Both the position numbers and the translations under genes were made by a program. From Clostridia bacterium (GTDB lineage Bacteria > Bacillota > Clostridia > Christensenellales > CAG-1252): DNA of 64,000 nt. The stretch is taken from contig JAFPXC010000001.1 in NCBI GenBank assembly GCA_017394805.1, positions 2,322-66,321 on the forward strand, read 5' to 3'. Below, in pieces: positions 4,780 to 56,053 of this stretch; position 1 is the first letter of the stretch, and every line of letters begins with the position of its first letter. The notes under the pieces were generated by a model, which worked only from the letters and a program-made list of their open reading frames with translations, did not search any database and was not told the origin of the DNA.

Positions 4780-4780
4780 T

Positions 4781-19083: not shown

Positions 19084-19674
19084 ATGGTAAAGGTGGTATT
19101 GGCAAAGACTCGTGGTCTGACGTGGGCAAAAGCCCGCGCCTTGCCCTTCGTCCTCGCAGAGGACGTAGCCGAGGCCGACCGCTACCGAAGCCCCGACGAC
19201 AAGGTGCTGCACCTCGTATCGGCCTTTCTCAAACGGAAATACGTGGGGACGTGGACGGTTTCGCCCGAGGGCAAGCCCCTTTCCCTCGCCGTTTGCTTCA
19301 ACGTGTCGCACACCGAATGGCTGGTGGCTTTGGCGCTCGCCCCCTTTGACGTGGGCGTAGACGTGGAGCGCGTCCGCACGGCCGACGCGGATTTGCGCAA
19401 CTATATCGCCGCCTCCGACGAGCGGGCGCACGTCCACTCGGACGAGGACTTTTTCCGTCTGTGGACGGCCAAAGAGAGCCTGGTCAAAGCCGAAGGCACG
19501 GGCTTTGACGTCAAACCCGACGAAGTGCCCGCCTTGCCCCTCGAAGGGTGCAAGACCTACAAAAATCATCGCTATTATTCCCGCCAAACCGAGGTGGGCG
19601 ACTGCGTGCTATCCGTCACGTGCCGCACCGACCGACCGTTTGAGTGGGCCATTGAAAAGGAGAATATACTATGA
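19084..19674 (+). CDS. 4'-phosphopantetheinyl transferase (Sfp type)
   Basis: FNVSHT, VGVDVERV and FRLWTAKESLVKAEGTG motifs. The stop overlaps the NRPS start (ATGA at 19671-19674). Confidence 0.85.
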   Translation: MVKVVLAKTRGLTWAKARALPFVLAEDVAEADRYRSPDDKVLHLVSAFLKRKYVGTWTVSPEGKPLSLAVCFNVSHTEWLVALALAPFDVGVDVERVRTADADLRNYIAASDERAHVHSDEDFFRLWTAKESLVKAEGTGFDVKPDEVPALPLEGCKTYKNHRYYSRQTEVGDCVLSVTCRTDRPFEWAIEKENIL

Positions 19675-22600
19675 GCCAATATTATCCGCTGTCCAAAACC
19701 GAAGAAGGCATCTACGTATCCTGTCTTACGCCTACCGACGCCTACAACCTCACCAACGTACTGCGGTTGGGCAAATCCTTGGACGTTCCTCGTTTCACCG
19801 CCGCGGTGGCCGCGGTATTCGACGCGCACCCCTATCTGTTCACCGTGTTGTTCGAGGGAGAGGACGGCGGCATATACAAAAAACTCCAACCCGTACCCAT
19901 AGAGTTGCCCGTCGTCGAGGTGGACGAACTCGACGTACAGTCGCCCCCCTTCGAGATGCTGGGGCGGCATTTGTTCCGCTTGGCTTTGTACCGCGTGGCG
20001 GGCGAATACGTCTTCGTCTTCGACTTCCATCATATCATTTTCGACGGCACTTCGGCCAAATTGTTCATCGACCAAGTGGGCGCCGTCTATCGCGGCGAAT
20101 CCATCGAAAAAGAGACCTACAGCGCCAACGAATTCGGCCTTGACGAGCAAAAACGCCTGCAAACGGACGACTACCGCAAGGCAAAAGATTTCTTCGAGAA
20201 GGCCGTCAAAGACCCCGAGACCGATTCCGCGCTCATCGAGGACAAGTCGGAGGGCACGATCCTTCACGGCACGTTCCATCAGGACCTCACCGTCCTCAAC
20301 GCGGACGTAAAAGACCTGACCAAACGGCTGAAAATCAAAACGTCGGCATTCTTCTTGGCGACTTTCGGCTATTTGTTGTCCAAAATCAATATGGACGACA
20401 AGGCGCTCTTCCTCACCGTCAACAACGGCCGCGACGAGATGACGCGCCATTCGTTGGGTATGTTCGTCAAGACCTTTCCCTTCTATCTGGAAAACAAAGA
20501 AACGGTGGCCGAATACCTCTCGGCCGCCAACGACTATCTGGTGGGCGCGACCGCCAGCCTACTGTATCCCTTCTCGGACGCGGTCAAGGATTTGGGCGTG
20601 CCCGACGGCGTGATGTTCGCCTATCAAGGGGACAGTTTCTACAAGACCGAGTGGGAGGGGCGTGACGCCTTCGTGTCCCTTCTCGACCGCAAGGACGGCA
20701 AGGACAAGTTGAGCGTGGAAGTATATCGTGAAAACGGGTGCTTCCTGGTGTGGGTAGAGTACCGCGCCGACCTCTACGAAGAGGACACCGTTCGGCACCT
20801 CATCCGCCTCTACGACGTGGCGCTCAAAGAGTTTTTGCGAAAAGCCGCGCTTGCCGACGTCGATCTCGTCGACGAAAAGGAAAAGGCGCTGTTGGATTCT
20901 TTCAACCGCGCGGACCTCTCCTATATAGACGCAAACCGCACGGTATTGGACGATTTCCGCGATATGGTAAAGAAATATCCCGACCACCCCGCCGTCGTGT
21001 TCCGCGACAAGCGCTACACCTATCGTGACGTGGATCGCTTGTCCGACAATATAGCCGCCTACCTCGCGGCCAAAGGCGTGGGCAAAGAGGACGTGGTGTC
21101 CGTACTCATCAACAAGAGCGAATATATCGTCATCGCCTCGTTGGGCGTGCTCAAATCGGGCGCGGCCTACCAGCCCCTCGATCCGTCTTACCCCGTGGAG
21201 CGATTGGCGTTCATGGTCAAGGACGTCGCCGCCAAGGCCCTCATCAAGGACCGTGACCTCGATTTGTTGCAAGACTACGACGGCCCCATTCTCTACACGG
21301 ACGAAGTAGACGCGTTGCCCGACCACGCGGCGCCTCGGGTGGACGTGCGGCCCCGAGATTTGTTCATTATGCTGTATACGTCGGGTTCGACGGGCGTGCC
21401 GAAAGGCGTTATGCTCGAGCACGGCAACCTCAACACGTTCGCCACCTATCACGCGCGGCGGTTCGGCGTAGACCATACGGCCAGAGTAGCCGCCTACGCA
21501 TCGTACGGGTTCGACGCGGATATGCTCGACCTCTATCCCACCCTCACGCACGGCGGGTGCGTATACGTCATACCCAACGAACTCAGGCTGGACCTCATCA
21601 AGTTGGGGGACTACTTCAACCAAAACGGCGTCACGCACGCCATGCTCACCACGCAGGTGGGGCGGCAATTCATCGAAATGATAGACGCGCCCACGTTGCG
21701 TTTCCTCTTGGTCGGCGGCGAAAAGTTGGTGCCCGTCGCACCGCCCAAATACACGTTGGCCAACGGCTACGGTCCCACCGAGGGCACGGTATATTGCTCG
21801 GCCCAAGTGGTGGATCGCACGTACTATCGCGTGCCTATCGGCAAAGCCAACGAAACCTACAAGACCTACGTCCTCGACAAAAACGGCCGTCGCCTGCCCA
21901 CCTTGGCGCAAGGCGAATTGTGCATAGCCGGCCCGCAGGTGGCGAGGGGCTATCTCAACCGTGAGGAAGAGAACAAAAAAGCCTTTCTCCTTAATCCCTT
22001 CGACGAAGACGCCGCCTTTGCGCGGCTCTATCGCACGGGCGACGTGGTGCGCTATCTCGCGGACGGCACGTTGGACTTCATCGGTCGCAAGGACGGTCAG
22101 GTGAAGATACGCGGCTTCCGCGTGGAACTCTCGGAAGTGGAAAAGGTCATTCGGGAATACGCGGGCGTCAAAGACGCCACCGTCAAGGACTTCGTGGACC
22201 CCGCGGGCGTCAAGTATTTGTGCGCCTACGTCGTGTCGAACGACGAGATAGACGTGGACGACCTCAACGCCTTTATCGCGTCCAAAAAGCCCCCCTATAT
22301 GGTGCCCGCCTACACGATGCAGATAGACGCCATTCCCCTCAACCAAAACCAAAAAGTCAACAAACGCGCCTTGCCGCAGCCCCAACTCAAACAGCGCGAA
22401 AAGGTAGCGCCCGCGGGTGAGGACGAGCAAGCGGTGTACGACATTCTCGCGGGCATTCTGGGCACGCGGGACTTCGGCGTTACCACGGACGTCTACGAGG
22501 CGGGCCTCACCAGCGTGTCCTCTATCCGTTTCGCCATTCTCTTGTCCAAACGATTCGGCAAAGAGGTGGGCAACGCCGACTTCCGCGCCTGCCCCACCGT

Positions 22601-25600
22601 GCGGGCGTTGACCGCGCGGCTGGCGGCCAAAGAGGAAGTGAAGACCTACGAAATACGGGCGGAATACCCCCTCTCCAAGTTGCAGGAAGGCATTTTCGTG
22701 GAATGTACCACCCACCCCGATACCACCGTCTACAATATCCCCGTTTTGATCAAACTCCACCCCTCGGTGGACGTAGAACGCCTGGCCGAGGCCGTAGAGA
22801 GGGTCGTGGACGCGCACCCCTATCTCAAAATGCGCCTGCACGTCCGTGACGACGGGGACGTGGTGGCCACCCGCGACGACGCGCGCAAGATAGCGGTCGG
22901 TCGCATCACGGTTGCCGAGGGCGAAACGAGCGGTCTCGTCAAGCCCTTCGACCTGCAAAAAGACGATCTCTTCCGCGCCGCCATCGTCACGGACGGCAAG
23001 CAGAATTATCTGTTCGTGGACGCGCACCATATCGTATTCGACGGCGAATCGCTGGTCGTCTTTATGCGCGAAGTGGAAGAAGCCTATCAAGGTCAAAGCG
23101 TCCCCGCCGAAACCTACACGGGGTTCGAAGTGGCCTTGGACGAAGAGGAAAGAGTAAAGAGCGACGACTATCGTCGGGCCAAAGCCTATTACGAGGATCT
23201 TTTGGGCGCGGTGGACACCGAATGTATGCCCATTCGCGACCGCGACGAAGGCGTCGACCGAGGGGAAGATTTCTTGGTGGCCGCCGTCATAGACAAAGCC
23301 CCTCTCGCCGCCTTCCTCAAAGATAGCGGCACCACCGTCAACGCCCTTTGGAACGCCGCGTTCGGCTACGCCTTGGCCAAGTTTCTGGCGCGGGAAGACT
23401 GCGTGTATACCACCGTCTACAACGGCCGTAGTGACAGTCGTCTGGCGGACGCCATCGGTATGTACGTGCACACATTGCCCGTGGTATTCCGCATGACGGC
23501 GGGGCAAAGCGCCAAAGACGCCGTGCGCAACGTGGCCAAACTGCTCGCAGACGACATGGCCAACGACGTCTATCCCTTTGCCGAAATATCCCGCAACTTC
23601 GGCGTCAAAGCCAACGTGATGTTCGTGTACGAGGGCAATATCGGCACGGGGCTGACGGTCGGCGGACAACCAGCCGAAAGCGTGATGCTCAAATTGGACG
23701 CGCTCAAAGCAGACCTCTCCGTCTTCGTGTACGAAACGGGAAACGGCTTCCGCTTAGATTGCGAATACAACGCGCGCTACTACGAAGAATGGAGCATTCG
23801 CTCCTTGCTGCAAAGCACCGTGGCGGCGCTCAACGCGATGATTTCGGGCGTCAAAATAGACGAAATATCCCTGCTTTCGCCCCAAGAAAAGGCCCGTCTG
23901 GACGCTACCTTCGTGGCGCACGAAACCGAGGATACCGACGTCGTTACCCTCTTCAGACGCGCCGCCGCGGCGTACCCCGAGCGCAACGCCGTCATCTTCC
24001 GCGACAAGCGCCTCACCTATCGGCAATTGGACGAGATATCCGACCGCGTGGCCGCCTACGTCCAAAGCCGTGGCGTGGGCAAAGAAGACCGCGTGTCCAT
24101 TCTCGTCCCGAGAGGGGAATATATGGTGATAGCGGCCTTGGGCGTGCTCAAAGCGGGCGCGGCCTACGAGCCGTTGGATCCCTCCTATCCCCCCGAGCGG
24201 CTCAACTTTATGGTGCAAAACGCCAAGGCAAAATTGGTCATCGCGGATAGCGCCCTCATCGGGTTGCTGTCCGAATACGAGGGCGACCGCCTTTTCATCG
24301 AGGACGTTCCCTCTCTGCCGCAGGCGAAACCCGTCGATCCCTCGCTCAAAGGGAATAATATGTTCATCATCCTGTACACCTCGGGCACGACGGGCACGCC
24401 CAAGGGCGTGATGCTCGAGCATCACAACCTCGTCAACTTCTGCACTTGGTATAGAGCGCATTACGATCTCACCCCCGAATCGGTGGTGGGCGCTTACGCG
24501 AGTTTCGGCTTCGACGCGGATATGATGGATTTGTACCCCGCGCTCACGACGGGTGCGGCGGTCTACGTCATTCCCGAAGATATGCGCCTTGACCTCAACG
24601 CCCTCAACGAAGCGTTCAAGGAGAACGGGGTGTCGCACGTCTTTATGACCACCCAGATGGGGCGTATGTTCGCCGAAAACATTGCGGGCGAAAGCCTTGC
24701 GCACCTGTCGGTGGGCGGCGAAACGCTCGCTCCCGTCAATCCGCCCAAAGGGTTCGCGCTTTGGAACGGATACGGCCCCACCGAATGCACCATCTTCTCC
24801 ACGATATGGAAGATAGATCGCCTCTACTACCGCAATCCCATCGGCGCGGCCTTGTGGAACTACAAACTGTACGTCGTGGGCAAAGCGGGCGACGAATTGC
24901 CCGTAGGCGCGTTGGGCGAGTTGTGGATAGCGGGCGCGGGCGTAGGCAGAGGCTACCTCGACCTACCCGAGCAGACCAAAAAGGTCTTTATTGCCAACCC
25001 CTTCGACAGCACCTCAGGCTTCGAGCGCGCGTATCGCACGGGCGACGTGGTGCGCCGCCTCGCGGACGGTAGCATCGACTTCGTAGGGCGCAACGACGGG
25101 CAGGTGAAGATACGCGGTTTCCGCATCGAATTGGCCGAGGTTGAAGGCGTTATACGCGAGTACCCCGGCGTCAAAAACGTGACCGTGCAAGCCTTCGAGG
25201 ACAAGGCCTTCGGCGGCAAGTTCCTCGCGGCCTACGTCGTGGCGGACGACAAATTGGACTTCGGCGCCATCGGCGAGTTCATCAAGAGCAAAAAGCCCCC
25301 CTATATGGTGCCTGCGGCCTTTATGCAGTTGGACGAGATACCCCTCAACCAAAACCAAAAAGTCAACAAACGCGCTTTGCCCGCCCCCGTGCGCAACGCG
25401 GCGGATACGAGCGTCAAAGACGAGCCGACCACCGCGCTCGAACGCGAGATATGCAAGGTGTTCGCCAACATATTGGGACTTGAAAAAGTCGGCGCCACCG
25501 ACGATTTCTTCGACATCGGCGGCACTTCGATAAGCGCCGCGAAGGTGTCTATGTACGCCGCGGGCAAGAGTTATCCCGTGGCCTACAAGGACATTTTCGA

Positions 25601-26861
25601 CAATCCCACCGCCCGCGCTTTGGCCAAACATATCACCGAGGCGAGCGGCCAAACGGCAGAAACGCAAGCGGTGCAAGAGGAAGAAAAGAGCGAAGAGGCG
25701 CTCCGCCACAACGCGGTGACCTACGTCAACGAGATTGCGTCCGTGCGCCCCCTCGGCAGAACGCTCCTCGCGGGCGGCACGGGCTTCCTCGGCTCTCACA
25801 TACTCAAAGCCCTCTTGGACGACGGGGTGGACACGGTGGTATTGAGCCGTAGCAGCAAGACCTTGGACGCCAAAACGCGCTTGTCGGCCATGATGATGTA
25901 CTACTTCGACGAAACGGCGGACGACCTCGTGGACAATCGCCTCACCGTGATCGACGGCGACATCACCAACGCCGACCTCTTGGACAAACTGAAAGACGAG
26001 CAGATAGACACCATCATCAACGCGGCCGCCTGCGTCAAGCACTTCGCCGCGGACGACATTATCGAGCGCATCAACGTAGGCGGGGTGGAGAACCTTATCA
26101 AGGTGGCTTTGGCGCACGACGCCAGGCTCATTCAAATCTCCACTTTGTCCGTCGCGGGCGAGAATGTGGGCAACAAGTTCCCCCCGACCTACCGCATGAA
26201 AGAGACGCAACTCTACTTCGGGCAGGACATCTCCAACAAGTACGTCAATTCCAAATTCAAGGCCGAGCAAGCCATCGTAGAAGCCATCGAGCGCGAGGGG
26301 TTGGACGCCAAGATGATCCGCGTAGGCAACTTGATGAGCCGACTGTCGGACGGCGAGTTCCAGGTCAACGCCATCACCAACGGCTTTATGCGCAACCTCA
26401 AAGGCTACGCCACTCTCAAGAAGTTCCCCGTCAACAGTATGGACGCCGTCATCGACTTCACCCCCATCGACGAAGTGGCCAAGGCCGTGTTGCTACTGTC
26501 CACCACGGGCAAAGAGTTCACCACGTTCCACGCCGCCAACTCGCATCAGGTGCAGATGGGCGACGTCATCTACGCGATGAACGAGATGGGCTTCGGCATC
26601 GACGTGGTGCCGGACGAGGAATTTGTGCGCGCCCTCAAAGAAATGATGGCCGACGAAAAGAAGAATATGCTGGTGTCCGCTCTCATCAATTACGCCTCTT
26701 CGGACGGCAAGGCGCACGCCTTCATTCAATCGGACAACGAGTTTTCCAACAAAGCGCTCTATCATCTGGGCTACAAGTGGCCCATTACGGACGAGCGTTA
26801 TCTCGAAAACGCCATTCGGGCTTTGGCCGAACTCAACTTCTTCATTCGCACGGATATCTAA
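19671..26861 (+). CDS. Bimodular non-ribosomal peptide synthetase, C-A-T-C-A-T-R (terminal thioester reductase)
   Basis: C1 HHIIFDG (nt 20028-20048). A1 LYTSGSTGVPKG (21372-21407), YRTGD and GRKDGQVKIRGFRVEL. T1 AGLTSVS. C2 HHIVFDGES. A2 LYTSGTTGTPKG. T2 FFDIGGTSISA. R domain GGTGFLGSH plus YVNSK (SDR YxxxK). Confidence 0.95.
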   Translation: MSQYYPLSKTEEGIYVSCLTPTDAYNLTNVLRLGKSLDVPRFTAAVAAVFDAHPYLFTVLFEGEDGGIYKKLQPVPIELPVVEVDELDVQSPPFEMLGRHLFRLALYRVAGEYVFVFDFHHIIFDGTSAKLFIDQVGAVYRGESIEKETYSANEFGLDEQKRLQTDDYRKAKDFFEKAVKDPETDSALIEDKSEGTILHGTFHQDLTVLNADVKDLTKRLKIKTSAFFLATFGYLLSKINMDDKALFLTVNNGRDEMTRHSLGMFVKTFPFYLENKETVAEYLSAANDYLVGATASLLYPFSDAVKDLGVPDGVMFAYQGDSFYKTEWEGRDAFVSLLDRKDGKDKLSVEVYRENGCFLVWVEYRADLYEEDTVRHLIRLYDVALKEFLRKAALADVDLVDEKEKALLDSFNRADLSYIDANRTVLDDFRDMVKKYPDHPAVVFRDKRYTYRDVDRLSDNIAAYLAAKGVGKEDVVSVLINKSEYIVIASLGVLKSGAAYQPLDPSYPVERLAFMVKDVAAKALIKDRDLDLLQDYDGPILYTDEVDALPDHAAPRVDVRPRDLFIMLYTSGSTGVPKGVMLEHGNLNTFATYHARRFGVDHTARVAAYASYGFDADMLDLYPTLTHGGCVYVIPNELRLDLIKLGDYFNQNGVTHAMLTTQVGRQFIEMIDAPTLRFLLVGGEKLVPVAPPKYTLANGYGPTEGTVYCSAQVVDRTYYRVPIGKANETYKTYVLDKNGRRLPTLAQGELCIAGPQVARGYLNREEENKKAFLLNPFDEDAAFARLYRTGDVVRYLADGTLDFIGRKDGQVKIRGFRVELSEVEKVIREYAGVKDATVKDFVDPAGVKYLCAYVVSNDEIDVDDLNAFIASKKPPYMVPAYTMQIDAIPLNQNQKVNKRALPQPQLKQREKVAPAGEDEQAVYDILAGILGTRDFGVTTDVYEAGLTSVSSIRFAILLSKRFGKEVGNADFRACPTVRALTARLAAKEEVKTYEIRAEYPLSKLQEGIFVECTTHPDTTVYNIPVLIKLHPSVDVERLAEAVERVVDAHPYLKMRLHVRDDGDVVATRDDARKIAVGRITVAEGETSGLVKPFDLQKDDLFRAAIVTDGKQNYLFVDAHHIVFDGESLVVFMREVEEAYQGQSVPAETYTGFEVALDEEERVKSDDYRRAKAYYEDLLGAVDTECMPIRDRDEGVDRGEDFLVAAVIDKAPLAAFLKDSGTTVNALWNAAFGYALAKFLAREDCVYTTVYNGRSDSRLADAIGMYVHTLPVVFRMTAGQSAKDAVRNVAKLLADDMANDVYPFAEISRNFGVKANVMFVYEGNIGTGLTVGGQPAESVMLKLDALKADLSVFVYETGNGFRLDCEYNARYYEEWSIRSLLQSTVAALNAMISGVKIDEISLLSPQEKARLDATFVAHETEDTDVVTLFRRAAAAYPERNAVIFRDKRLTYRQLDEISDRVAAYVQSRGVGKEDRVSILVPRGEYMVIAALGVLKAGAAYEPLDPSYPPERLNFMVQNAKAKLVIADSALIGLLSEYEGDRLFIEDVPSLPQAKPVDPSLKGNNMFIILYTSGTTGTPKGVMLEHHNLVNFCTWYRAHYDLTPESVVGAYASFGFDADMMDLYPALTTGAAVYVIPEDMRLDLNALNEAFKENGVSHVFMTTQMGRMFAENIAGESLAHLSVGGETLAPVNPPKGFALWNGYGPTECTIFSTIWKIDRLYYRNPIGAALWNYKLYVVGKAGDELPVGALGELWIAGAGVGRGYLDLPEQTKKVFIANPFDSTSGFERAYRTGDVVRRLADGSIDFVGRNDGQVKIRGFRIELAEVEGVIREYPGVKNVTVQAFEDKAFGGKFLAAYVVADDKLDFGAIGEFIKSKKPPYMVPAAFMQLDEIPLNQNQKVNKRALPAPVRNAADTSVKDEPTTALEREICKVFANILGLEKVGATDDFFDIGGTSISAAKVSMYAAGKSYPVAYKDIFDNPTARALAKHITEASGQTAETQAVQEEEKSEEALRHNAVTYVNEIASVRPLGRTLLAGGTGFLGSHILKALLDDGVDTVVLSRSSKTLDAKTRLSAMMMYYFDETADDLVDNRLTVIDGDITNADLLDKLKDEQIDTIINAAACVKHFAADDIIERINVGGVENLIKVALAHDARLIQISTLSVAGENVGNKFPPTYRMKETQLYFGQDISNKYVNSKFKAEQAIVEAIEREGLDAKMIRVGNLMSRLSDGEFQVNAITNGFMRNLKGYATLKKFPVNSMDAVIDFTPIDEVAKAVLLLSTTGKEFTTFHAANSHQVQMGDVIYAMNEMGFGIDVVPDEEFVRALKEMMADEKKNMLVSALINYASSDGKAHAFIQSDNEFSNKALYHLGYKWPITDERYLENAIRALAELNFFIRTDI

Positions 26862-26912
26862 CGATAATCTCACTTTTGCAATCGCAAAAACAACTCTTAT
26901 AGGAGAAAGAAA

Positions 26913-27209
26913 ATGGAAGTCAACATTGAACACAACGAAGCAATGGTCATTGCCGTCAAAGGCAGATTGGACACGGTTACGTCCGCGCAGTTGGACGCCG
27001 CCATCAAGGCCGAAACCATCACGGAAAACTTGGTCGTCTTCGACTTCACCGACGTGGAGTACATTTCGTCGGCGGGGCTTCGCGTACTATTGGGGCTCAA
27101 ACGCACCTTGGACGACGAAGGCAAAGCGCTCGAGGTACACAATATCAACGCGGTGGTACGAGAGATATTCTCGGTGACCGGTTTTATCAACGCGCTGACC
27201 GTCAAGTAA
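26913..27209 (+). CDS. STAS-domain anti-sigma-factor antagonist (SpoIIAA/RsbV-like)
   Basis: 98 aa. VVFDFTDVEYISSAGLRVLL contains the conserved phosphorylatable Ser context. Confidence 0.85.
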   Translation: MEVNIEHNEAMVIAVKGRLDTVTSAQLDAAIKAETITENLVVFDFTDVEYISSAGLRVLLGLKRTLDDEGKALEVHNINAVVREIFSVTGFINALTVK

Positions 27210-27218
27210 CGCCCTCTT

Positions 27219-29345
27219 ATGAAAATAAGCCTGCGTCTGAAGGTCGTGTTTATGACCGTTATTTTGTCGATGGCACTCATCGGCGCGTCCGTTCTCATCG
27301 CGTCGCTGTTTTTCACCGAGCGCACGCAAAAAGACGCCGATAACGATTGCGCCATGGCCGCCGCCAATATGGCGAAGCGCCTCGACGAATCGTATGGGGA
27401 TTTTATCGTGAATTACGCCGCTTCCATGCGCCAAATCTACGAGGATAACTACGAAGATTTGGTGTATCACGAACAGCACGGATTCGCCTCCCGTGAGGAA
27501 GAAGCGGAGTATTACAAGAGCCTTACCGCGCCTTTGTTCCCCGCTTCGACCGGCTTCGGCATGAGTTACGCGCAGTCCGAGTTCCGCAACAACTACAACT
27601 TCGTTATGCAGGAATTGTTGCTGGTCTCCAACAATTTCAACACCGAGGGCGGCTATGTCTATCTCTACGACAGCCAAAACGATTATATCGTCTTTATGAT
27701 GGATTGCACGGACGACGATTCGCCGTTGTACGCCTTCCCCGCCAGCATTCAGCGGCCCTCCCCACAATGGAAATCGGCCGTAGGCGACGCGAATACCGTG
27801 GTTACGTACCTCAAAAAATTGAACGGCGTGCAGTATTGCTACGGGACGTACCCGCTCTTGGACGAAGACGAGGGCACGGTCGTCGCCTACGTCGGATTCA
27901 ACTACGATATGGCCAAATTGCAGACCGCCCAACGCGAATTTATCACCACGATCACCATCATTATGGTTATCGTGATGGCGGTCATCACCCTCGTGTATTT
28001 GTTGTTGGCGGAGTATTTCCTCATCAAAAACATTCGCAAACTGTCCCGCTCTACCGTGGCGTTCTCGGACAACCTCGCGGAAGGCAAGCGGTTGACCTAC
28101 GTCGATAGCGGCGTCAAGTCCCGCGACGAGGTGGGTATGCTCTCCGCGCAGTTTGGCGTCATGCAGCACAAACTCATCGAATACGTGGACACCATCGCCC
28201 AAAAGACGGCGGAAGAGCACCGTCGCGGCGCGGAGTTGTCCATAGCCGCCGAGATACAGCAAGAAGAATTGCCGCCCTCCGCGTATTCGGACGAGGCGGT
28301 ATCCGTTCGCGCCAGTTTCACCGCCGCCAAAGAGGTAGGCGGCGACTTCTACGATTATTTCTACGTGGACGAAGGACGAGTGGCGGTGGTGATAGCCGAC
28401 GTCACGGGCAAAGGGATACCCGCCGCCTTGTTTATGATGAAAGCGAAGAGCATCATCAAGAGCGAGGTCAAGGCGACCGAAGACCTAGTCAGAGCGATGG
28501 CCAAAGCCAACGACGCCATTCTCGAAAACAACCGCGCGGGGCTGTTCGTCACGGCCTTCGTGGGCGTCGTAGACGTGCGTACGCGTCGTATGACGTGCGT
28601 CAGCGCGGGGCACGAAAAGCCCTACCTCGTGGGCGAGGACGGCGCGGTCGAACGGTTGAACGTGCACGCCAACTTCGTGCTGGGCGGCATCGCGGGCTTC
28701 CCCTATGCGGCGGACGAGGTCGACCTCGGCGATAGGCGGCTCTTCCTCTTCACGGACGGGCTGAACGAGTCCATCGACGGCAACGAAGAGGAGTTCGGCT
28801 ATCAACGCGTCGAAGACGCGCTCCGCATTTCCGCCCATCTCGGCCAAGACCAAGTGCTGTCGGCGATGCAAGACGCACTCGGCGCTTTCGTGGGCGACAA
28901 AGAGCCGTTCGACGACGTGACGATGCTGTCGTTTGCGCTCAAAGACGCCGCCTTGCACTTACGATTCGACGATCCCGACTACGACGTTATCGAGCAAACG
29001 ACGGAAGCGGTCAACGCCGCTTTCCCGCAACTCGAAAGGGAGGTCTTGGTCAAAGCGGGCGTTATTATCGACGAGATACTCAACAATCTGGTTTCCTACG
29101 AAAAGAAAGAGGGGTTCGTCGTCACCGTCGACGCCGCCGTCAAGGCGGACGGTTTGACCCTCGTTTTCTCTTCCAACGGCGACGCGTTCAACCCTCTCCA
29201 AACGAAAGGAAAGCCCCTTACCTCGGACGCCGCCGAAGCGACTCTCGGCGGTTGGGGCATCGCCATCACGCGAAGTCTGTCTTCGGGCGTTTCCTACGCC
29301 CGCGTAGACGATCGCAACGTGTTAGAGGTGACGTTCGCGCTCTGA
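27219..29345 (+). CDS. Membrane sensor - HAMP - PP2C (SpoIIE/RsbU-type) phosphatase fused to a C-terminal RsbW/SpoIIAB-like kinase domain
   Basis: N-terminal TM, periplasmic-type domain and second TM. PP2C motifs EVGGDFYDYF, VVIADVTGKGIPAALFM, FLFTDGLNES and DDVTML. C-terminal IIDEILNNLVSY and GGWGIAITRSL resemble HATPase_c_2 N and G2 boxes. Confidence 0.85.
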   Translation: MKISLRLKVVFMTVILSMALIGASVLIASLFFTERTQKDADNDCAMAAANMAKRLDESYGDFIVNYAASMRQIYEDNYEDLVYHEQHGFASREEEAEYYKSLTAPLFPASTGFGMSYAQSEFRNNYNFVMQELLLVSNNFNTEGGYVYLYDSQNDYIVFMMDCTDDDSPLYAFPASIQRPSPQWKSAVGDANTVVTYLKKLNGVQYCYGTYPLLDEDEGTVVAYVGFNYDMAKLQTAQREFITTITIIMVIVMAVITLVYLLLAEYFLIKNIRKLSRSTVAFSDNLAEGKRLTYVDSGVKSRDEVGMLSAQFGVMQHKLIEYVDTIAQKTAEEHRRGAELSIAAEIQQEELPPSAYSDEAVSVRASFTAAKEVGGDFYDYFYVDEGRVAVVIADVTGKGIPAALFMMKAKSIIKSEVKATEDLVRAMAKANDAILENNRAGLFVTAFVGVVDVRTRRMTCVSAGHEKPYLVGEDGAVERLNVHANFVLGGIAGFPYAADEVDLGDRRLFLFTDGLNESIDGNEEEFGYQRVEDALRISAHLGQDQVLSAMQDALGAFVGDKEPFDDVTMLSFALKDAALHLRFDDPDYDVIEQTTEAVNAAFPQLEREVLVKAGVIIDEILNNLVSYEKKEGFVVTVDAAVKADGLTLVFSSNGDAFNPLQTKGKPLTSDAAEATLGGWGIAITRSLSSGVSYARVDDRNVLEVTFAL

Positions 29346-30052: not shown

Positions 30053-30550
30053 GTTTTAGTACCACTTTGAATCACATACGGCTAAAATGGGGGTATTGCA
30101 CGGGATTTTCGGGAACAGGTTTTAGTACCATTTTGAATCACATACTGCTAAAACTGATTGTTAGACGTACTCTTGTCTGGACAAGTTTTAGTACCATTTT
30201 GAATCACATACGGCTAAGACTTGTGCGCTATATAGTACCCCTTAGACGCAGTTATAGTACCATTTTGAATCACATACGGCTAAAACATACGTTGGGTATA
30301 AAGTTTTCGTATGCCAGTTTTAGTACCATTTTGAATCACATACGGCTAAAACTTATTTTAGCGGTGGTAGGCGCAACAACAGGTTTTAGTACCATTTTGA
30401 ATCACATACGGCTAAAACAGCGGTGCTTTGTTGATTTCCTCGGCGGTTGTTTTAGTACCATTTTGAATCACATGCGGCTAAAACGTTCGCCGGACGGCAT
30501 CTCCTCGATGCGGAGTTTTAGTACCATTTTGAATCACATACGGCTAAAAC
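30053..30550 (-). CRISPR. CRISPR array, 8 x 36-bp repeats and 7 x 30-bp spacers (type II-A)
   Basis: Repeats start at 30053, 30119, 30185, 30251, 30317, 30383, 30449 and 30515 (period 66). The + strand consensus is GTTTTAGTACCATTTTGAATCACATACGGCTAAAAC. Minus-strand transcription (crRNA repeat GTTTTAGCCGTATGTGATTCAAAATGGTACTAAAAC) is inferred from tracrRNA complementarity, cas gene direction, the AT-rich leader at 30551-30626 and the doubly mutated distal repeat at 30053. Spacers on the + strand are: gggggtattgcacgggattttcgggaacag; tgattgttagacgtactcttgtctggacaa; ttgtgcgctatatagtaccccttagacgca; atacgttgggtataaagttttcgtatgcca; ttattttagcggtggtaggcgcaacaacag; agcggtgctttgttgatttcctcggcggtt; gttcgccggacggcatctcctcgatgcgga. 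Confidence 0.95.
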
Positions 30551-30584
30551 CTCAAAACCCGCACGCGCCCAAAATAGGAACCGT

Positions 30585-30607
30585 ATTATACTGTTATCAT
30601 TATATCA
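30585..30607 (-). promoter_or_regulatory. Candidate leader promoter(s) for pre-crRNA
   Basis: On the minus strand there are two -10 elements, TGATATAAT (30607-30599, extended -10) and TATAAT (30590-30585). They lie 35-50 nt upstream of the first repeat, in the AT-rich leader. Confidence 0.45.
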
Positions 30608-30626
30608 TAAAAATCCTCATCAACAA

Positions 30627-31244
30627 CTATCTTTTTTCATTTTGCAAAAGATTATTCGCATCAACGTTATCTACTAGCAGTAGTTTTAAGCCGCTGTAGA
30701 TGGTGCATTTGATGATTTCATTCAATTCTTCCACCGAAAAAAATGATTTTGCGTTAATCAAAACGCATATTTCATAAGCCTTGGTGAGCGCGACTATTGC
30801 GATGAGGTTTTGCAAGTCTTCCACGATGGTGCCTGAAGTGTTGGCAATATGTGCATTGCATAGTTTAAGATAGGAAGAAATCGTTCGGGGCACATCATAA
30901 TCCCATTGCAAATCGGTGTCTTCTATTTGTCGTAGTAGTCGGCATACCGCCTGTTCGACTTCATCCAAAAGAGATGTATATTCATCCCCTCGACAAGAGG
31001 AGTCCAGCAGTTTGCAATACTTGGCAAAGACGGTTTTTCCGATAGTAGCCAAAGAATAATAGTCAAGGATAACGACGGCTTCCTTCGTCCAATTCAGAGA
31101 TCGATCGCCGAATAAAACAGCAATATGACCGTCCGCATAGCCGTTGCATTGCGCCACCAACGAGGCGAAGTACGCCCGACTCTTGCAAACGACGCCTATG
31201 ACTTCGCCGTCCGCGGGCAAAATTTCATCCGCATATCCCAACAA
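30627..31244 (-). CDS. csn2: Csn2-like protein (type II-A adaptation accessory)
   Basis: 205 aa, located between cas1 and the leader as in II-A loci. The N-terminus LGYADEILPADGEVIGVVCKSRAYFASLV and the segment ICVLINAKSFFSVEELNEIIKCTIYSGLKLLLVD resemble S. pyogenes Csn2 ([60 protein letters not shown]) from memory. TTG start with GAGGGG 8 nt upstream. Confidence 0.6.
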   Translation of the reverse strand: MLGYADEILPADGEVIGVVCKSRAYFASLVAQCNGYADGHIAVLFGDRSLNWTKEAVVILDYYSLATIGKTVFAKYCKLLDSSCRGDEYTSLLDEVEQAVCRLLRQIEDTDLQWDYDVPRTISSYLKLCNAHIANTSGTIVEDLQNLIAIVALTKAYEICVLINAKSFFSVEELNEIIKCTIYSGLKLLLVDNVDANNLLQNEKR

Positions 31245-31633
31245 TAATCGTGCCCCTCATTTTGTCCTATTTGCGAAAGCAGGCGTGCCTGATTGCAAAT
31301 TTTCTGCCGAAGGATTGCCGCCGATACGATATCCTTGATCTCGTCATTCCAGTGTGCCTGCGTCATAATCCGCTTGGACGAGTGGTAGTGGTCGTGATGC
31401 CCTACCACTTCGCCCATAGGATTGTGCTTTTCATCACAAAAGATAATTTTCACCTTCGATTTGACCAATTCAGCCAACGCCATACCGGTGAAACTGACCT
31501 GAGGCGAAGCCAGAATAAGCACGTCGATTTCGGAGATATGTATTTGTACGTCCGCTTCTTTTTTGACGATGACGTAGCCGCCGCGATAACATATTTTACT
31601 GCGGCTGTCCACTATGATGGTGCGCCAGCCCAT
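31196..31633 (-). pseudogene. cas1: cas1 remnant: N-terminal ~125 codons only, then an out-of-family tail and stop
   Basis: MGWRTIIVDSRSKICYRGGYVIVK...IDVLILASPQVSFTGMALAELVKSKVKIIFCDEKHNP...AILRQKICNQARLL is colinear with residues 1 to ~125 of type II-A Cas1 (~290 aa). Similarity ends near nt 31250. The last ~18 codons overlap csn2 in another frame. Confidence 0.8.
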
Positions 31634-31636: not shown

Positions 31637-34600
31637 TTACTTTTTGGTGCGATAGTAGCCCGTGACGGATTGGTCGAGCCATTTCACTTTGTCGGGGTAT
31701 ATCGTCTTGCCGGTCAGTCGTCCCCAACTGCTTCCGCCGTTCCACTCTTTGGGCATATCGACACGACCTGCGCCACGCTTGGCGACGGTCAACAAATTGT
31801 CTATGTACTGACACTTGTCAATAGGACTTAATCCATCGAACCCCGTTTCTAAGAATGATTTGACTCTGGCGGCAATGTTGGCATACAGCGGATAGTATCG
31901 ACGCATTTTTTCCACGATTTGTTCGACCAAACCGTGCGCGTCCCGCTCTATAACGTCTGCGGCATTGTTTTCTATCCAATGCTCGGCCACCGCTTGCCCT
32001 CTGCTCTTGTCTTTTTTCAAGTTCATCGCGTGCTCTATGGCGGCGATACACGCCATATAAGGGACATCCGTCACCAACTGCCTGGCGTTTTGCACCTCTT
32101 TCTCGCCTACGATATATACCAGATGTCCCTCGAGCGAAATCAGTTGGTATTTATACACGATACCACCCAGTACCTCGCCGCCCGAGTAGTTGTCTCGAAC
32201 GTATGTTTCCAACGTAGTGTCTCCATTCTTTATGGCGGTGGCCGCTTGAACAGGTATGCCCACCAACGTCGTTTCACTCTTTTTGCCTTTGTCTCGGCTC
32301 ACCTTGACGAAGTAGGCGCAATTCTCGTTGCTGTACCCGCCGTAAATGGCGGTATCGAGCGGTACGCGATTGCCGTCCTTGTCGGTTACGTAACGCAGGG
32401 GTATGCTTCCCTTGCCCGCGGGCATAATGGTTTGATTGTAAAAACCGCTATTTGCCCAAGGCTCCTTGATATACACCACGGCGATATCGTTATGGTCCAT
32501 CTGACGGCAAATATTGCCGAACGCTACGTCCTCGGGGATGATTTCACCGTCCCCGTTGGTCGGCTTGTAGGGATAATGTCCGTATCGCAGCAGTTGTAAA
32601 ATAGCGCCGTAGTAGTTGTTCTTTTGGGCAATCATGCGTGCGGCTTCCGTTTCTTCCTGCATATACTGTTTGGCACTGCGTACGCATTCGTTTTGCCCCC
32701 ACATGGGATACAAATCAGTGGTAAATGTGCCCAATACGCCGGCCAAATAGGCGTCCTTGGCATGGTGCAGGTCGTTTAAGGTGCGCAATTTGAAAAAACT
32801 GCCATATCGAATGGAATCTTCGTCCGTCATCATGTGGCGGAAGTTACTGCTCAATCCTGCGCGGATATTACGCACGAATTGTTCTTGCATTCGGTGCGCA
32901 GGGAATGCGCGATAGATAACCTCGGCGAAGCACTTGTTGATTTGGGTGGTTTCTACCAACTGACGATTGATAAAGCCCGATAGTGCCTGCTCGTCCCAAT
33001 GGTTGCGCTGTAGATTGTCCAATTTCTTTTGCGATATAAATCCTTTGCGTTGGAGAAATTGCCACCAACCGAGCATACGCTCGATGATTGCATCCGACAA
33101 GGCTTGGTCGCGCTTGCGCTGATTGCTGCTATGCAACACCAGTGCTTTGTTGTCGAGACTGTTATCCGTAATGTAACTGCGCGGGACGATGTGGTCTACC
33201 TCATAGTCGTTCAAGTGGTCGAGCGACAACGGCTCGCCCGTGTACATACAGCGCCCCATTTGAAGAAAATAGAGGAACACCTTTTCGTTATCGAAGTATT
33301 TTTGGGAGCCATCTTCTTTTTCCTTTGTCATTAATTCCTTTTTGCAGGATGGATAGCTTTCAGCGGCCCAGCCGTATTCCGCCACTTGTTGTTGTATGTT
33401 CTTGTACAACAGATCCAACATCTTTTGTCGACTGCTCTTTTTTTGCCCCTTGACATCGTCTTCCCGCGTGGTTTCCACAAAGATGTGTTGCGGCTCACAG
33501 CCCATTATCTGCACCACTTCACACACCACTTTGTAGGCTTGCCATACCGCTTTCTTGACCGCGGCGTCGGCATACAGCGGTTCTATCAACGCCTCGTACG
33601 TCAGGGCTTCGGCCGCTTCGTCGTTTCGTTGGAAGAGATCGACGAACCCGTATCGTTCGTCGTGAATGATTTGCTGCATGTTGTCGGGCGTTTCGTACAA
33701 TAAATCCAGCACGCAACGTGGGGGCATGGCTGCGCTTGTTACCTCACACAAAGTGTGGCGCGAATATTTACCCCACCCCGCATATTTTTTCTTGCACAGC
33801 GTATCAATGTACTTTCTTAGGTACGAACGGGATTGGAATAAGGTATTCAGCACGCGCTTGCGCGCGTCGCGATCGGTGAACACGGTCAGACACTCTATCA
33901 CTTTGTCGTAGAGAGGAACGTCGGCTTCGGCATAATCACTACCGAAAAGCGTTCGTAGGTCATACTCGGTTTTCATCCCGAAATCAAGCGCGTCATTGGC
34001 GTTTGGCGACGTAAATTTATAGTCGTTGATGTCGTTGCTCCACCGATAGTGGTTGTTGAGATATCCCAGAATCTCCTTTATTTTTATGTCCGCGCGTCCG
34101 CGAATCAAATGGTTGAAAACGTCTTGTTTTACTTCCACGGGGAATGGGTTGCCTTTATAGCGCAAGTTATTCAATCCGTTGAGGGTAATGTACCGCTGAT
34201 AGGTGATGGATTGCAAAGGTAGCACGTATTCTTCGGGGAAAAATTGGTCGTGGGACAGCATACGCGCAATAAAGTTGAGATTGGCGGCATCCAAGTTCAC
34301 CTTATCGGCGAAGTTCCAAGGATACACCCTTTCTTCGATTGTTTGGTCTATCCAACCCCCCTTCAACGTACCCACCGAATACGGACGGCGGAAAGAGAGA
34401 AGGGAGAGGATTTTGTCGCGGTTGGCGGCCAGTTCGGGATAATAAGGCGCTTGATTATCCAATATGTTCTTCAATTCGTTGAGTCCCAGTTGGTAGGGGA
34501 CCACGCCGTTGTCGGTGCTGTTGAGACGCGGCATAAAGGTTTCGCACTCGATCAGGCGCAGTACCTCTGCCTTCGCGTCGCTGTCGGGCAGTTGGGCCAG

Positions 34601-35782
34601 CACCGATTTGACGTATTTGTAAAAGTCTTCTCGGGTGCATCCGCCCGCTTTGCCGCTATCTTTCCTGCTATAGCGCGTGCGACGCGTAGACGTCCGCACG
34701 TACGAGGGATAGTTGTCCAACGCGGTGGAATTTTTGCGCGGGGAATAAAACACTTGCCGGTATAATACTTTATTGCCGCGCAACAAATCTTTTAACAACT
34801 TCAAATGCTTACGATGTTGCTCGTACTTCGCCATCATCGCCTGCGAAAAAGAAGTATTGCCTTCTCCCAGTATATCTACGAAGCAATACTCGGTGTAGGC
34901 GACATGGAGAGCGTCCAAAAAGTTGCCGATTTCGTCGCCGAAAAGGGTATGGCAAGCGGCCAGTTGTTCTTCGGCGGTGTCCGTGCCGAATTGCAATTTT
35001 ATCTCCACTTCGCCTTCCCATTTGAGCATTTGCCGCAATTCTTTTTCGGTTAGCAGGTATCCGCACAGCAGTTTTGCCATGCCTTTGGCAAAGTCGGTTG
35101 CGCTGCCGCATACGCCGACCATATCCTTTTGCCTATCCTTGCGGGGTTTCGACTTGTCTTTCATCTTGTCGTAGTAATCTTTGCCGTCGAAAGAATAATC
35201 CTCGGGCGTGAGGTCTGCCTCTATGGCAAGTTCTATCGCGTCTCGTAGCAGTTTTATTACGCCGTCACCGCTAACCGTGATGCTTTCCTCTTCGTGCAAA
35301 AAATTGCCGCGATATTTGATAATGTGGTGCATAGCAAGATAGACCAAACGTATATCCTTTCGTTCGGTCGTGCGGGTGAGCGCGTCACGCAAATGATAGA
35401 TGGTGGGATATTCCTTGTAGTATTGCTTGTCCGTGTAGGCGCCGTTGAATAAGTTGTAGCGATAGTTGCGCCCCGTTTTGGCGTCGACGCGATTGCCGGC
35501 CAAAAAAGACATATCCATGCGGTGAAAGAACTGGGGGTCGACGGCTTTTACCGATTCCGCAGTTAATTCGCGCAACAGTTCGATGCGCTCGCGCCGTCTT
35601 TCGTAGCGGCGACGGGCGCTTCGAGCCAGCCGTCGATCTTTTGCCGAATGCCCCTCATCGAAAAGCACTACGCCCCACAGGTGCTGATTGCCTCTCTTGA
35701 TGACGCGAAAATCCTGCCCGACCGCGGCCCAGCCGACGGAATTTGTGCCCAAATCCAAAGAAAGATTATAATATTTGTCCAT
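31637..35782 (-). CDS. cas9: Cas9 (type II-A), 1381 aa
   Basis: RuvC-I YNLSLDLGTNSVGWA; arginine bridge helix RRLARSARRRYERRRERI; HNH DYEVDHIVPRSYITDNSLDNKALVLHSSNQRK; RuvC-III LNDLHHAKDAYL. Start set at ATG 35782-35780 (MDKYYNLSLDLG) with a GGAGG RBS (rc of 35795-35799). The ORF-track start at 35827 would add 15 aa and run into the tracrRNA. Confidence 0.95.
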   Translation of the reverse strand: MDKYYNLSLDLGTNSVGWAAVGQDFRVIKRGNQHLWGVVLFDEGHSAKDRRLARSARRRYERRRERIELLRELTAESVKAVDPQFFHRMDMSFLAGNRVDAKTGRNYRYNLFNGAYTDKQYYKEYPTIYHLRDALTRTTERKDIRLVYLAMHHIIKYRGNFLHEEESITVSGDGVIKLLRDAIELAIEADLTPEDYSFDGKDYYDKMKDKSKPRKDRQKDMVGVCGSATDFAKGMAKLLCGYLLTEKELRQMLKWEGEVEIKLQFGTDTAEEQLAACHTLFGDEIGNFLDALHVAYTEYCFVDILGEGNTSFSQAMMAKYEQHRKHLKLLKDLLRGNKVLYRQVFYSPRKNSTALDNYPSYVRTSTRRTRYSRKDSGKAGGCTREDFYKYVKSVLAQLPDSDAKAEVLRLIECETFMPRLNSTDNGVVPYQLGLNELKNILDNQAPYYPELAANRDKILSLLSFRRPYSVGTLKGGWIDQTIEERVYPWNFADKVNLDAANLNFIARMLSHDQFFPEEYVLPLQSITYQRYITLNGLNNLRYKGNPFPVEVKQDVFNHLIRGRADIKIKEILGYLNNHYRWSNDINDYKFTSPNANDALDFGMKTEYDLRTLFGSDYAEADVPLYDKVIECLTVFTDRDARKRVLNTLFQSRSYLRKYIDTLCKKKYAGWGKYSRHTLCEVTSAAMPPRCVLDLLYETPDNMQQIIHDERYGFVDLFQRNDEAAEALTYEALIEPLYADAAVKKAVWQAYKVVCEVVQIMGCEPQHIFVETTREDDVKGQKKSSRQKMLDLLYKNIQQQVAEYGWAAESYPSCKKELMTKEKEDGSQKYFDNEKVFLYFLQMGRCMYTGEPLSLDHLNDYEVDHIVPRSYITDNSLDNKALVLHSSNQRKRDQALSDAIIERMLGWWQFLQRKGFISQKKLDNLQRNHWDEQALSGFINRQLVETTQINKCFAEVIYRAFPAHRMQEQFVRNIRAGLSSNFRHMMTDEDSIRYGSFFKLRTLNDLHHAKDAYLAGVLGTFTTDLYPMWGQNECVRSAKQYMQEETEAARMIAQKNNYYGAILQLLRYGHYPYKPTNGDGEIIPEDVAFGNICRQMDHNDIAVVYIKEPWANSGFYNQTIMPAGKGSIPLRYVTDKDGNRVPLDTAIYGGYSNENCAYFVKVSRDKGKKSETTLVGIPVQAATAIKNGDTTLETYVRDNYSGGEVLGGIVYKYQLISLEGHLVYIVGEKEVQNARQLVTDVPYMACIAAIEHAMNLKKDKSRGQAVAEHWIENNAADVIERDAHGLVEQIVEKMRRYYPLYANIAARVKSFLETGFDGLSPIDKCQYIDNLLTVAKRGAGRVDMPKEWNGGSSWGRLTGKTIYPDKVKWLDQSVTGYYRTKK

Positions 35783-35787: not shown

Positions 35788-35816
35788 TTGACAACCTCCT
35801 CGTTTGATGGTAGAAT
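35788..35816 (+). promoter_or_regulatory. tracrRNA promoter
   Basis: TTGACA (35788-35793), exactly 17 nt, TAGAAT (35811-35816). The predicted start at ~35823-35825 coincides with the first base of the anti-repeat. Confidence 0.7.
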
Positions 35817-35822
35817 AAATTC

Positions 35823-35922
35823 AGCATTTTGAATCACATACGAAGTTAAAATAAATGCTAAACTCAATGCCTTTTTAGGTTCCGTTTTGACGGAGAAGTG
35901 CCACCTCGGTGGCATTTTTTTT
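35823..35922 (+). ncRNA. tracrRNA
   Basis: The anti-repeat CATTTTGAATCACATACG (35825-35842) is a perfect 18-nt complement of crRNA repeat positions 9-26. It is followed by AAGTTAAAATAA, the bulge plus lower stem seen in the S. pyogenes tracrRNA. Two downstream hairpins follow (tccgt-tttg-acgga; gccacc-tc-ggtggc), ending in a T8 run at 35915-35922. Confidence 0.85.
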
Positions 35923-55696: not shown

Positions 55697-55720
55697 TAAC
55701 GCTCCATCCGATTAAACGTG

Positions 55721-55750
55721 CGGCACCCTTCGGGGTGCCGTATCTTTTTT
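55721..55750 (+). terminator. Rho-independent terminator after the adhesin gene
   Basis: cggcaccc-ttcg-gggtgccg (8-bp stem with a UUCG loop, 55721-55740), then tatcTTTTTT. Confidence 0.85.
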
Positions 55751-56023: not shown

Positions 56024-56053
56024 TTGACAAAGGCGGCGCATTTGCTGTATCAT
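56024..56053 (+). promoter_or_regulatory. Candidate promoter of the 2168-aa lipoprotein gene
   Basis: TTGACA (56024-56029), 18 nt, TATCAT (56048-56053). GGAGG RBS lies before ATG 56116. Confidence 0.45.

Follow-up and report, generated by a model that had tools for sequence, protein, structure and literature searches.

The type II-A CRISPR-Cas (short palindromic repeats, clustered and regularly interspaced, with their associated genes) locus described here lies in a 64-kb stretch of DNA, hereafter the window, taken from a contig of a metagenome-assembled genome (MAG) of an uncultured gut bacterium, named 'MAG: Clostridia bacterium' at NCBI. Our results show that three mutations have destroyed its adaptation operon, cas1-cas2-csn2, and indicate that the interference half of the locus probably survives. 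An 807-bp deletion at a GCGGAC microhomology fused cas1 codon 142 in frame to csn2 codon 19, and two losses of one nucleotide each, in homopolymers, broke the chimeric open reading frame (ORF): G5 became G4 at cas1 codon 127, and A7 became A6 at csn2 codon 211. The ORFs of 145 and 205 amino acids (aa) are what these lesions have left. Cas9, the trans-activating CRISPR RNA (tracrRNA) and the CRISPR RNAs (crRNAs) from seven spacers should still cut matching DNA, but the locus would be unable to add spacers by itself, so that its memory would be frozen and could only shrink.

Layout of the locus

According to the ORF list of the window, cas9, a Cas1-like ORF of 145 codons, a Csn2-like ORF, a leader and an array of eight repeats follow one another on the minus strand. 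The parts referred to below are these:

31637-35782, minus strand: cas9, 1381 aa, uninterrupted, with its true start at ATG 35782 (the mechanical ORF extends to 35827)
35788-35917, plus strand: tracrRNA gene, upstream of cas9 and on the opposite strand, recognized by its anti-repeat, promoter and fold
31196-31633, minus strand: Cas1-like ORF, 145 aa, starting four bases downstream of cas9
31253-31633, minus strand: cas1 codons 1-127, in frame with ATG 31633, covering the N-terminal domain and the beginning of the helical domain
31253-31256, minus strand: G4 run (G5 in every other allele), a 1-nt loss that shifts the cas1 frame after codon 127
31209-31252, minus strand: cas1 codons 128-142 (ARLLLGYADEILPAD), which share the frame of the csn2 remnant and not that of the cas1 ATG
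31209-31214, minus strand: deletion junction with the sole remaining copy of GCGGAC, placed by alignment with the intact alleles
31196-31198, minus strand: TAG that closes the 145-aa Cas1' ORF, 11 nt into csn2-derived sequence
30627-31244, minus strand: Csn2-like ORF read from TTG 31244, 205 aa, overlapping the 145-aa ORF by 49 nt
30627-31208, minus strand: csn2 remnant, native codons 19-211 and then a premature stop, from the TIGR01866 match and the translation
30632-30637, minus strand: A6 run (A7 in the intact alleles), a 1-nt loss near the csn2 3' end
30551-30626, minus strand: CRISPR leader, 76 nt, ending in ...GGGTTTTGAG at repeat 1
30053-30550, minus strand: CRISPR array, eight repeats of 36 nt and seven spacers of 30 nt

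An 807-bp deletion at a 6-bp microhomology

Undeleted alleles of the same species were found on four contigs (L004, L090, L091 and L094), with flanks 98.6-99% identical to the window. L004, which reads cas9-cas1-cas2-csn2, was found by a protein search with the short Cas1 that led to a longer, 99% identical Cas1 (P0001). The other three were reached through a search with the L004 Cas2 (two contigs) and a look-up of the intact Cas1 P0128 (the third); they share the neighbour genes of the window and have all three adaptation genes intact, coding for a Cas1 of 290 aa, a Cas2 of 101 aa and a Csn2 of 225 aa. The Cas1 of the intact alleles matches TIGR03639 over its full length (290 bits) and can be aligned, again over its whole length, with 5XVN and 6QXF, two solved structures of II-A Cas1.

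Base-level alignment with L004, L090 and L091 revealed that exactly 807 bp are absent from the window. In the intact alleles the hexamer GCGGAC occurs in cas1 codons 141-142 and again in csn2 codons 17-18, exactly 807 bp apart; the window keeps one copy (31214-31209) and has no filler DNA at the junction, the features by which a microhomology-mediated deletion is recognized. Since 807 equals 269 x 3 and both hexamers read Ala-Asp, the fusion is in frame, joining Cas1(1-142) to Csn2(19-225). The lost DNA comprises cas1 codons 143-290, the whole of cas2 and the first 16 (or 18) codons of csn2; the csn2 start and its ATGA overlap with cas2 went with it, the native start MKLILYDVDFNNETDW being part of the deleted DNA. 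A junction that retains one copy of the hexamer is typical of slippage or illegitimate recombination at microhomology, and the two enzymatic routes (replication slippage and illegitimate recombination) would look the same at the sequence level.

The original prediction, made from the letters of the window, had proposed a clean internal deletion of about 0.8 kb running from mid-cas1 to the 5' end of csn2 and removing cas2. The alignment with intact orthologous loci that it had suggested bears this out, with both endpoints now mapped to the base. It had also held that there is no room and no ORF for the C-terminal half of Cas1 or for Cas2, and in agreement with this, tblastn with the intact proteins of the same species located neither in the 64-kb window.

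The cas1 remnant and the G4 frameshift

The deletion has removed the catalytic domain of Cas1. The NREGH, GIHH and DLMEPFRP motifs, in which Cas1 has its catalytic Glu/His/acidic triad, are all situated past residue 142, within the 148 deleted residues. With the junction at residue 142, the C-terminal alpha-helical domain and the metal-binding Glu/His/Asp(Glu) triad of a functional Cas1 integrase are not preserved. The 145-aa product resembles Cas1 over residues 3-127 only (PF01867 positions 3-123 or 7-126 of 283, TIGR03639 positions 1-126 of 278), and its 101 bits fall short of the TIGR03639 cutoff of 120. By these measures the window has neither the cas1 nor the cas2 of a II-A locus, both of which are present in the sister alleles.

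A separate lesion ends the Cas1 frame before the junction is reached. Using the intact 290-aa Cas1 as tblastn query, residues 1-127 aligned at 99% identity and residues 127-142 at 100% identity, the latter in the neighbouring frame at 31256-31209. In the alignments the window reads GGGG at 31256-31253 where L004, L090, L091 and L092 (a second deletion haplotype, described below) read GGGGG. Thus, the Cas1 frame ends at codon 127 because one G was lost, and not because of the deletion; the 18 trailing codons of the 145-aa ORF are cas1 codons 128-142 and three csn2 codons, read out of frame. It had been proposed that Cas1 similarity runs from ATG 31633 to about 31250 and stops there, and that 18 unrelated codons then lead to a stop within csn2. 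Both statements describe that one frame correctly, but in the neighbouring frame the similarity continues to 31209 and the supposedly unrelated codons are cas1 codons 128-142. The deletion had in turn been blamed for cutting Cas1 at about 125 codons; this has to be corrected, because the frameshift does so and the junction lies at codon 142. That the short Cas1 could be a conserved natural variant, a possibility raised at the same time, does not agree with the 290-aa Cas1 carried by the close relatives.

The csn2 remnant and the A6 frameshift

Our analysis shows that csn2 is likewise a remnant, truncated at both ends, and not a retained gene, because its start, its coupling to cas2, its first 16-18 codons and its last 14 residues are lost. 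The 205-aa product matches Csn2 over TIGR01866 positions 10-211 of 222 with 78 bits (cutoff 35), compared with positions 5-222 and 95 bits for the intact 225-aa protein. As the signature gene of a II-A locus, this ORF is clearly descended from csn2, but it lacks profile positions 1-9 and 212-222 and a start codon of its own. Its first 12 residues (MLGYADEILPAD) are Cas1 sequence, corresponding to cas1 codons 131-142, and translation of the csn2 remnant showed that it contains no ATG codon. At the other end, the change from A7 to A6 at 30637-30632 replaces the last 14 Csn2 residues (KIVVDEDFYDIMITV) with Arg-stop, and with them go positions 212-222 of the profile. The original prediction had csn2 retained and beginning at TTG 31244. 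This TTG is cas1 codon 131, the native start having been deleted, and the description of the gene as retained fails at the 5' end and, through the A6 frameshift, at the C-terminus.

Note that NCBI annotates MBQ4443053.1 (145 aa, 31196-31633) as 'CRISPR-associated endonuclease Cas1' and MBQ4443052.1 (204 aa, 30627-31241) as 'type II-A CRISPR-associated protein Csn2'. These public names hide the lesion, and tools that count cas1 and csn2 matches would call the locus a complete II-A system.

The deletion recurs in independent assemblies

Exact-sequence look-ups found the 145-aa, 205-aa and Cas9 products, 100% identical, in at least six independent assemblies. The allele of the window, with its junction, G4 and A6, is present in Logan contigs from SRR12529067 and SRR12529382 and in the ENA assemblies ERZ28594220, ERZ27317935, ERZ28654536 and ERZ28019094, which differ in assembler and BioSample; the exact products are also deposited as the NCBI MAG proteins MBQ4443052-54, encoded on a 66.5-kb contig. 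Moreover, the window shares 100% identity with contigs L001, L002, L003, L005, L007 and L008, in stretches of up to 12.8 kb. Thus, the window allele is a single clone that has been sampled repeatedly.

Since the window derives from a metagenome-assembled genome, the organism might have an intact cas1-cas2 that the assembler collapsed. We consider this extremely unlikely. The two ends of the deletion share just 6 bp, far under any assembler k-mer, so a collapse would not be possible; the junction recurs, together with G4 and A6, in the two Logan contigs and the four ENA assemblies; and it recurs again on the diverged haplotype L092. The same junction in at least six independent assemblies argues that the deletion is genuine, as originally predicted.

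A second deletion haplotype and the probable sequence of the lesions

The Csn2 cluster has a 312-aa member, P0132, that is an unbroken chimera (...GYANEILPAD joined to GEVIGVV...ITV). Its contig, L092, is 49 kb long, syntenic with the window and about 97.3% identical to it. L092 carries the junction seen in the window, but with G5 and with an in-frame csn2 3' end. Because of this, the 807-bp deletion is probably the oldest of the three lesions of the window, with G4 and A6 as later, private decay. The intermediate state was found on the L092 background only: for intermediates on the window background (G5 with the deletion, G4 without it, A7 variants), no exact protein was present in a collection of 15 billion proteins.

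L092 has damage of its own. An A6-to-A7 frameshift at about cas1 codon 25 (window position 31565) is common to L092 (at about 9960) and the undeleted L004 (at about 898), and the L092 remnant has accumulated four private nonsynonymous and two private synonymous changes. These changes and the codon 25 frameshift are as would be expected of a pseudogene. With G4, A7 and the 807-bp deletion, three independent cas1 lesions are present in this species.

The polymorphisms that flank the junction suggest that the deletion has moved between backgrounds. At the single-nucleotide polymorphisms (SNPs) 31787, 31618, 31565 and 30936, L092 goes with L004 and the window with L090 and L091, while the deletion itself is common to the window and L092; the four gametes all occur, so that the four-gamete test fails. 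L004 is itself a mosaic, window-like at 32437-32252 and L092-like at 31787-30936. Such mosaic SNPs between 32437 and 30936 in L004, L090, L091 and L092 point to within-species homologous recombination around the cas locus. We favour, without taking it as proven, a single origin of the deletion followed by recombination between backgrounds over two origins. The alternative, that the identical deletion arose twice, was judged unlikely: the intact module has 507 direct-repeat pairs of at least 6 bp, nine of them of at least 9 bp, and GCGGAC is therefore not a privileged site.

Self-targeting was also considered as a cause of the deletion and rejected. The spacers of the window, L092 and L091, allowing up to 7 mismatches, match neither the deleted 807 bp nor the window nor the related loci.

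The interference half

All the parts needed for interference look intact in the window, in agreement with the original prediction for cas9, the tracrRNA, the leader and the array. Cas9 matches TIGR01865 with 718 bits and the Pfam REC, HNH, RuvC, PI and bridge-helix domains, as a II-A Cas9 does, and has the motifs DLGTNSVGW (D10, RuvC-I) and DHIVP (HNH). The cas9 genes of the window and L090 are separated by 32 substitutions, with 15 codons differing synonymously and 17 nonsynonymously, and by an in-frame indel of 3 nt.

The tracrRNA gene begins with a promoter-like site, TTGACA-17-TAGAAT, at 35788-35816. The anti-repeat CATTTTGAATCACATACG (35825-35842, plus strand) is an 18-nt perfect complement of repeat positions 9-26, which identifies this as the putative tracrRNA, and is directly followed by AAGTTAAAATAA. 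The transcript would form three 3' hairpins, the last of them a GC hairpin with a U-tract, and its predicted fold has an energy of -28.1 kcal/mol (z = -4.1). Over its 130 nt the gene differs from L090 at one position. Since Rfam at gathering thresholds returned no family over the window, the tracrRNA call rests on the anti-repeat, the promoter and the fold.

The leader ends in TTTTGAG directly before the GTTTTAG of the first repeat, giving the array and leader of a II-A locus, and differs from that of the other alleles by one substitution. This end resembles the leader-repeat junction of group 1 II-A loci, ATTTGAG/GTTT (PMC5382924). Of the cas genes, cas9 alone is required for II-A interference (PMC3241640), while II-A adaptation requires Cas1, Cas2, Csn2 and Cas9 (PMC4335292). 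Because of these requirements, the locus would still interfere but would not add spacers, and is probably a frozen, interference-only system. It had been proposed that spacers could be acquired if Cas1 and Cas2 were supplied in trans; this is incomplete, since Csn2 is required as well (PMC4335292).

The CRISPR array

The 36-nt repeat (GTTTTAGCCGTATGTGATTCAAAATGGTACTAAAAC) has the GTTTTAG...AAAAC form. Repeats 2, 5, 6 and 7 carry private single substitutions, each a different one, and the terminal repeat 8 carries two, which amounts to six substitutions over the 288 nt of repeat sequence. Of the seven internal repeats of the window four are altered, compared with one of eight in L092. The substituted internal repeats fit what old, unrenewed units would look like.

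Within the clone, L005 has window spacers 1-4 unchanged and L008 has the last spacer unchanged. The sole array variant that we saw there is shorter. L006 (1044-1140, compared with window 30550-30256) has the same deletion allele and leader, then repeat 1 followed by window spacer 4, without spacers 1-3, and is otherwise identical to the window over about 1 kb. All contigs with intact alleles stop at the first repeat or shortly beyond it, and the comparison of arrays therefore covers the window, its clone and L092. An array-spanning ORF, used as protein query for arrays with the same repeat, returned nothing.

The first spacer of L091 (GACGGCCGAAGAAATCAACGCCGCACCGCT, L091:3850-3879) is identical to window spacer 2 (30448-30419) at 24 of 30 positions. 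The similarity points to two independent acquisitions, both from one protospacer site that related targets share. A degenerate pattern covering both spacers had no match in IMG/VR.

Fusions of cas1 and csn2 in unrelated loci

A HMMER scan with the chimera over 1.84 billion representative proteins gave matches that were nearly all to the Cas1 part or to the Csn2 part alone. Three proteins from unrelated organisms match both. The four fusions, with the approximate end of the Cas1 profile match and the approximate start of the Csn2 profile match, are these:

P0189, 263 aa: Cas1 to about 77, Csn2 from about 33
this species (P0132 and the window): Cas1 to about 142, Csn2 from about 8-10
P0156, 355 aa: Cas1 to about 163, Csn2 from about 28
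P0148, 317 aa: Cas1 to about 194, Csn2 from about 83

In the three unrelated loci (L095:1092-2159, L096:4064-5017 and L097:4086-4877) the chimera directly follows cas9 and there is no cas2. A full cas9, an ATTTGAG leader end and the beginning of an array are preserved in L096 and L097; in L095 cas9 is fragmented and the array is missing. That the breakpoints differ speaks against a functional fusion family. Internal deletions that fuse cas1 to csn2 are thus a recurrent route by which II-A loci lose adaptation. Scans with the Csn2 remnant of the GTDB species genomes and of the JGI metagenomes returned no relatives, the species being absent from both sets, and no description of natural cas1-csn2 fusion genes was found in the literature that we searched. 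By its GAPDH, the species is nearest (90%) to a MAG of an uncultured member of the Christensenellaceae.

A different kind of lesion was observed in a 43%-identical II-A locus (L009:5100-5140), where a frameshift in an A9 run interrupts cas1 at about codon 117 and cas2 and csn2 are kept. Note that both this lesion and the A6-to-A7 frameshift may be homopolymer errors in these Logan contigs.

Other features of the window

A DpnII-type restriction-modification cassette lies at 2527-5524 and consists of a D12-class adenine methyltransferase (2527-3651), a DpnII endonuclease (3916-4779) and an N6/N4 methyltransferase (4751-5524). It is followed by a methylase-like ORF (5605-6885) and by a 744-aa protein with two HATPase domains (6888-9122). 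At 14367-14662, just upstream of a HAD-hydrolase/ABC-transporter gene group, there is a 145-bp tandem duplication whose two copies are 98% identical. Within 19671-29345 lies a 2396-aa ORF resembling a non-ribosomal peptide synthetase (NRPS), with two condensation, adenylation and carrier modules and a reductase-type end, as judged from the Pfam matches of the same gene in L092. After it come a STAS-domain protein and a SpoIIE/HATPase_c_2 protein that adjoins the array. Finally, the region 45623-62622 is occupied by two giant ORFs, one of 3357 aa with repeated YDG/MBG domains, a CBM26 starch-binding module and internal tandem repeats of about 230 bp, and one of 2168 aa with zero Pfam matches.

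Discussion

Apart from the assembly artefact already discounted, the same observations could be read in three other ways. Given an in-frame deletion that persists on two haplotypes, and Cas1'::'Csn2 chimeras in three other taxa, the short Cas1, or the fusion of the Cas1 N-terminus to Csn2, might be a natural variant that functions in some role of its own. We regard this as very unlikely, hardly more credible than the artefact. Four fusions with four breakpoints look like independent accidents and not like a conserved architecture, both haplotypes interrupt the chimeric ORF (by G4 in the window and by A7 at about codon 25 in L092), the changes in the L092 remnant are mostly nonsynonymous, and the closest relatives have a normal 290-aa Cas1. 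We infer that the fusion and its fragments are pseudogene products and not a new protein. The locus might instead still acquire spacers through Cas1-Cas2(-Csn2) encoded elsewhere in the genome. This is improbable in our view, although several observations weigh on its side and against a frozen memory. The array of L006 starts at spacer 4, and if it represents the ancestral state, three leader-end spacers may have been added in the window since the deletion; not one spacer is common to the two deletion haplotypes (seven in the window, eight in L092), which would also fit continued acquisition; and borrowed adaptation genes are documented for other CRISPR types (PMC8092290; bioRxiv 10.1101/2024.10.25.620265). 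We read the L006 array either as shortened through repeat recombination, with three units gone, or as mis-joined across repeats in a short MEGAHIT contig that starts with adapter. A single repeat-repeat recombination is more economical than three acquisitions plus the substitution in repeat 2. The failure of the four-gamete test already requires recombination, which, together with a divergence of about 2.7%, can explain the different arrays without acquisition after the deletion. Csn2 would also have to be supplied. Neither tblastn nor an array scan found a second cas1 or cas2, or a second array, within the 64-kb window, the part of the genome that was searched.

The remaining possibility is that the whole locus is inactive and decaying, with Cas9 intact only because too little time has passed. 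This too seems unlikely to us, if somewhat less so than acquisition in trans. The locus could be drifting as a whole: in addition to the six substitutions in the repeats, with four of the seven internal ones altered, the 17 nonsynonymous to 15 synonymous codons in cas9 compared with L090 are not a low ratio. Exact searches of IMG/VR found a protospacer for none of the seven spacers, from which no protospacer adjacent motif (PAM) or target can be inferred, and one unrelated fusion locus, L095, has no array and has its cas9 in fragments. These points count against a working interference half. On the other hand, one large deletion and two frameshifts have hit an adaptation remnant of about 1 kb, compared with none in the 4.1-kb cas9, the tracrRNA gene is just 1 nt off the strain with the intact allele, and cas9 is uninterrupted in L092, L096 and L097, the last two of which also keep leader and array. 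We consequently prefer the loss of adaptation with interference retained, a reading that is based on comparison of sequences throughout.

The ancestral layout is that of canonical II-A loci such as those of E. faecalis and S. thermophilus (cas9-cas1-cas2-csn2, with a Csn2 of about 220 aa), which share with it the gene order, the 36-nt repeat, the 30-nt spacers and a tracrRNA upstream of cas9 on the opposite strand; their leader ends are of the ATTTGAG type, compared with TTTTGAG here. In contrast to them, the window allele has no Cas2, and its Cas1 is without the catalytic domain and its Csn2 without either end. Engineered loci are among those closest to this state. The S. thermophilus CRISPR3 'pCas9' construct in E. 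coli (Sapranauskas et al. 2011, PMC3241640) likewise has cas9, tracrRNA, leader and array without adaptation genes, and an S. thermophilus cas1/cas2/csn2 deletion strain (Wei et al. 2015, PMC4335292) lacks the same three genes. Unlike in both, the loss described here is natural, leaves Cas1' and Csn2' fragments and is polymorphic in a wild species, and it is known from sequence alone. A strain-level cas1 truncation was also deduced from sequence in the type I-C system of S. mutans UA159, judged inactive (truncated cas1 and cas8c) according to the citation of it in PMC7316486. That system is of another CRISPR type, whereas here the lesion touches the adaptation genes only, and the mechanism and the ancestral state behind it have been mapped. 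The VI-B system of F. columnare, which borrows II-C machinery (PMC8092290), resembles the present locus in having an array and effector without Cas1-Cas2 of its own, but it natively lacks the adaptation module and its acquisition in trans has been shown; here the module was lost recently and acquisition in trans is not favoured.

What we describe is ordinary strain-level gene decay of a known system, mapped to the base. Its interest is that a natural Cas9 system reduced to its interference half can be resolved at this level, and that public metagenomes have yielded the ancestral allele, the mechanism of mutation and the probable order of events. In view of the three cas1 lesions of this species and the frameshift in L009, it is conceivable that adaptation genes are lost preferentially; this is not established, the cases being few. 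Loss of adaptation with Cas9 kept could even be a favoured outcome, for instance through the autoimmunity cost of acquisition. The deletion allele would then be a polymorphism maintained on two recombinant haplotypes beside two other independent cas1 frameshifts, and unrelated loci in which cas9, leader and array are preserved (L096 and L097) would give rise to such fusions again and again. We hold this to be a doubtful, tentative possibility. If the wider pattern holds true, the three cas1 lesions in one species and the four fusions across taxa, most of them at loci where cas9 and the array persist, would bear on the debated cost of CRISPR adaptation and on the frequency of 'frozen' Cas9 loci in nature.

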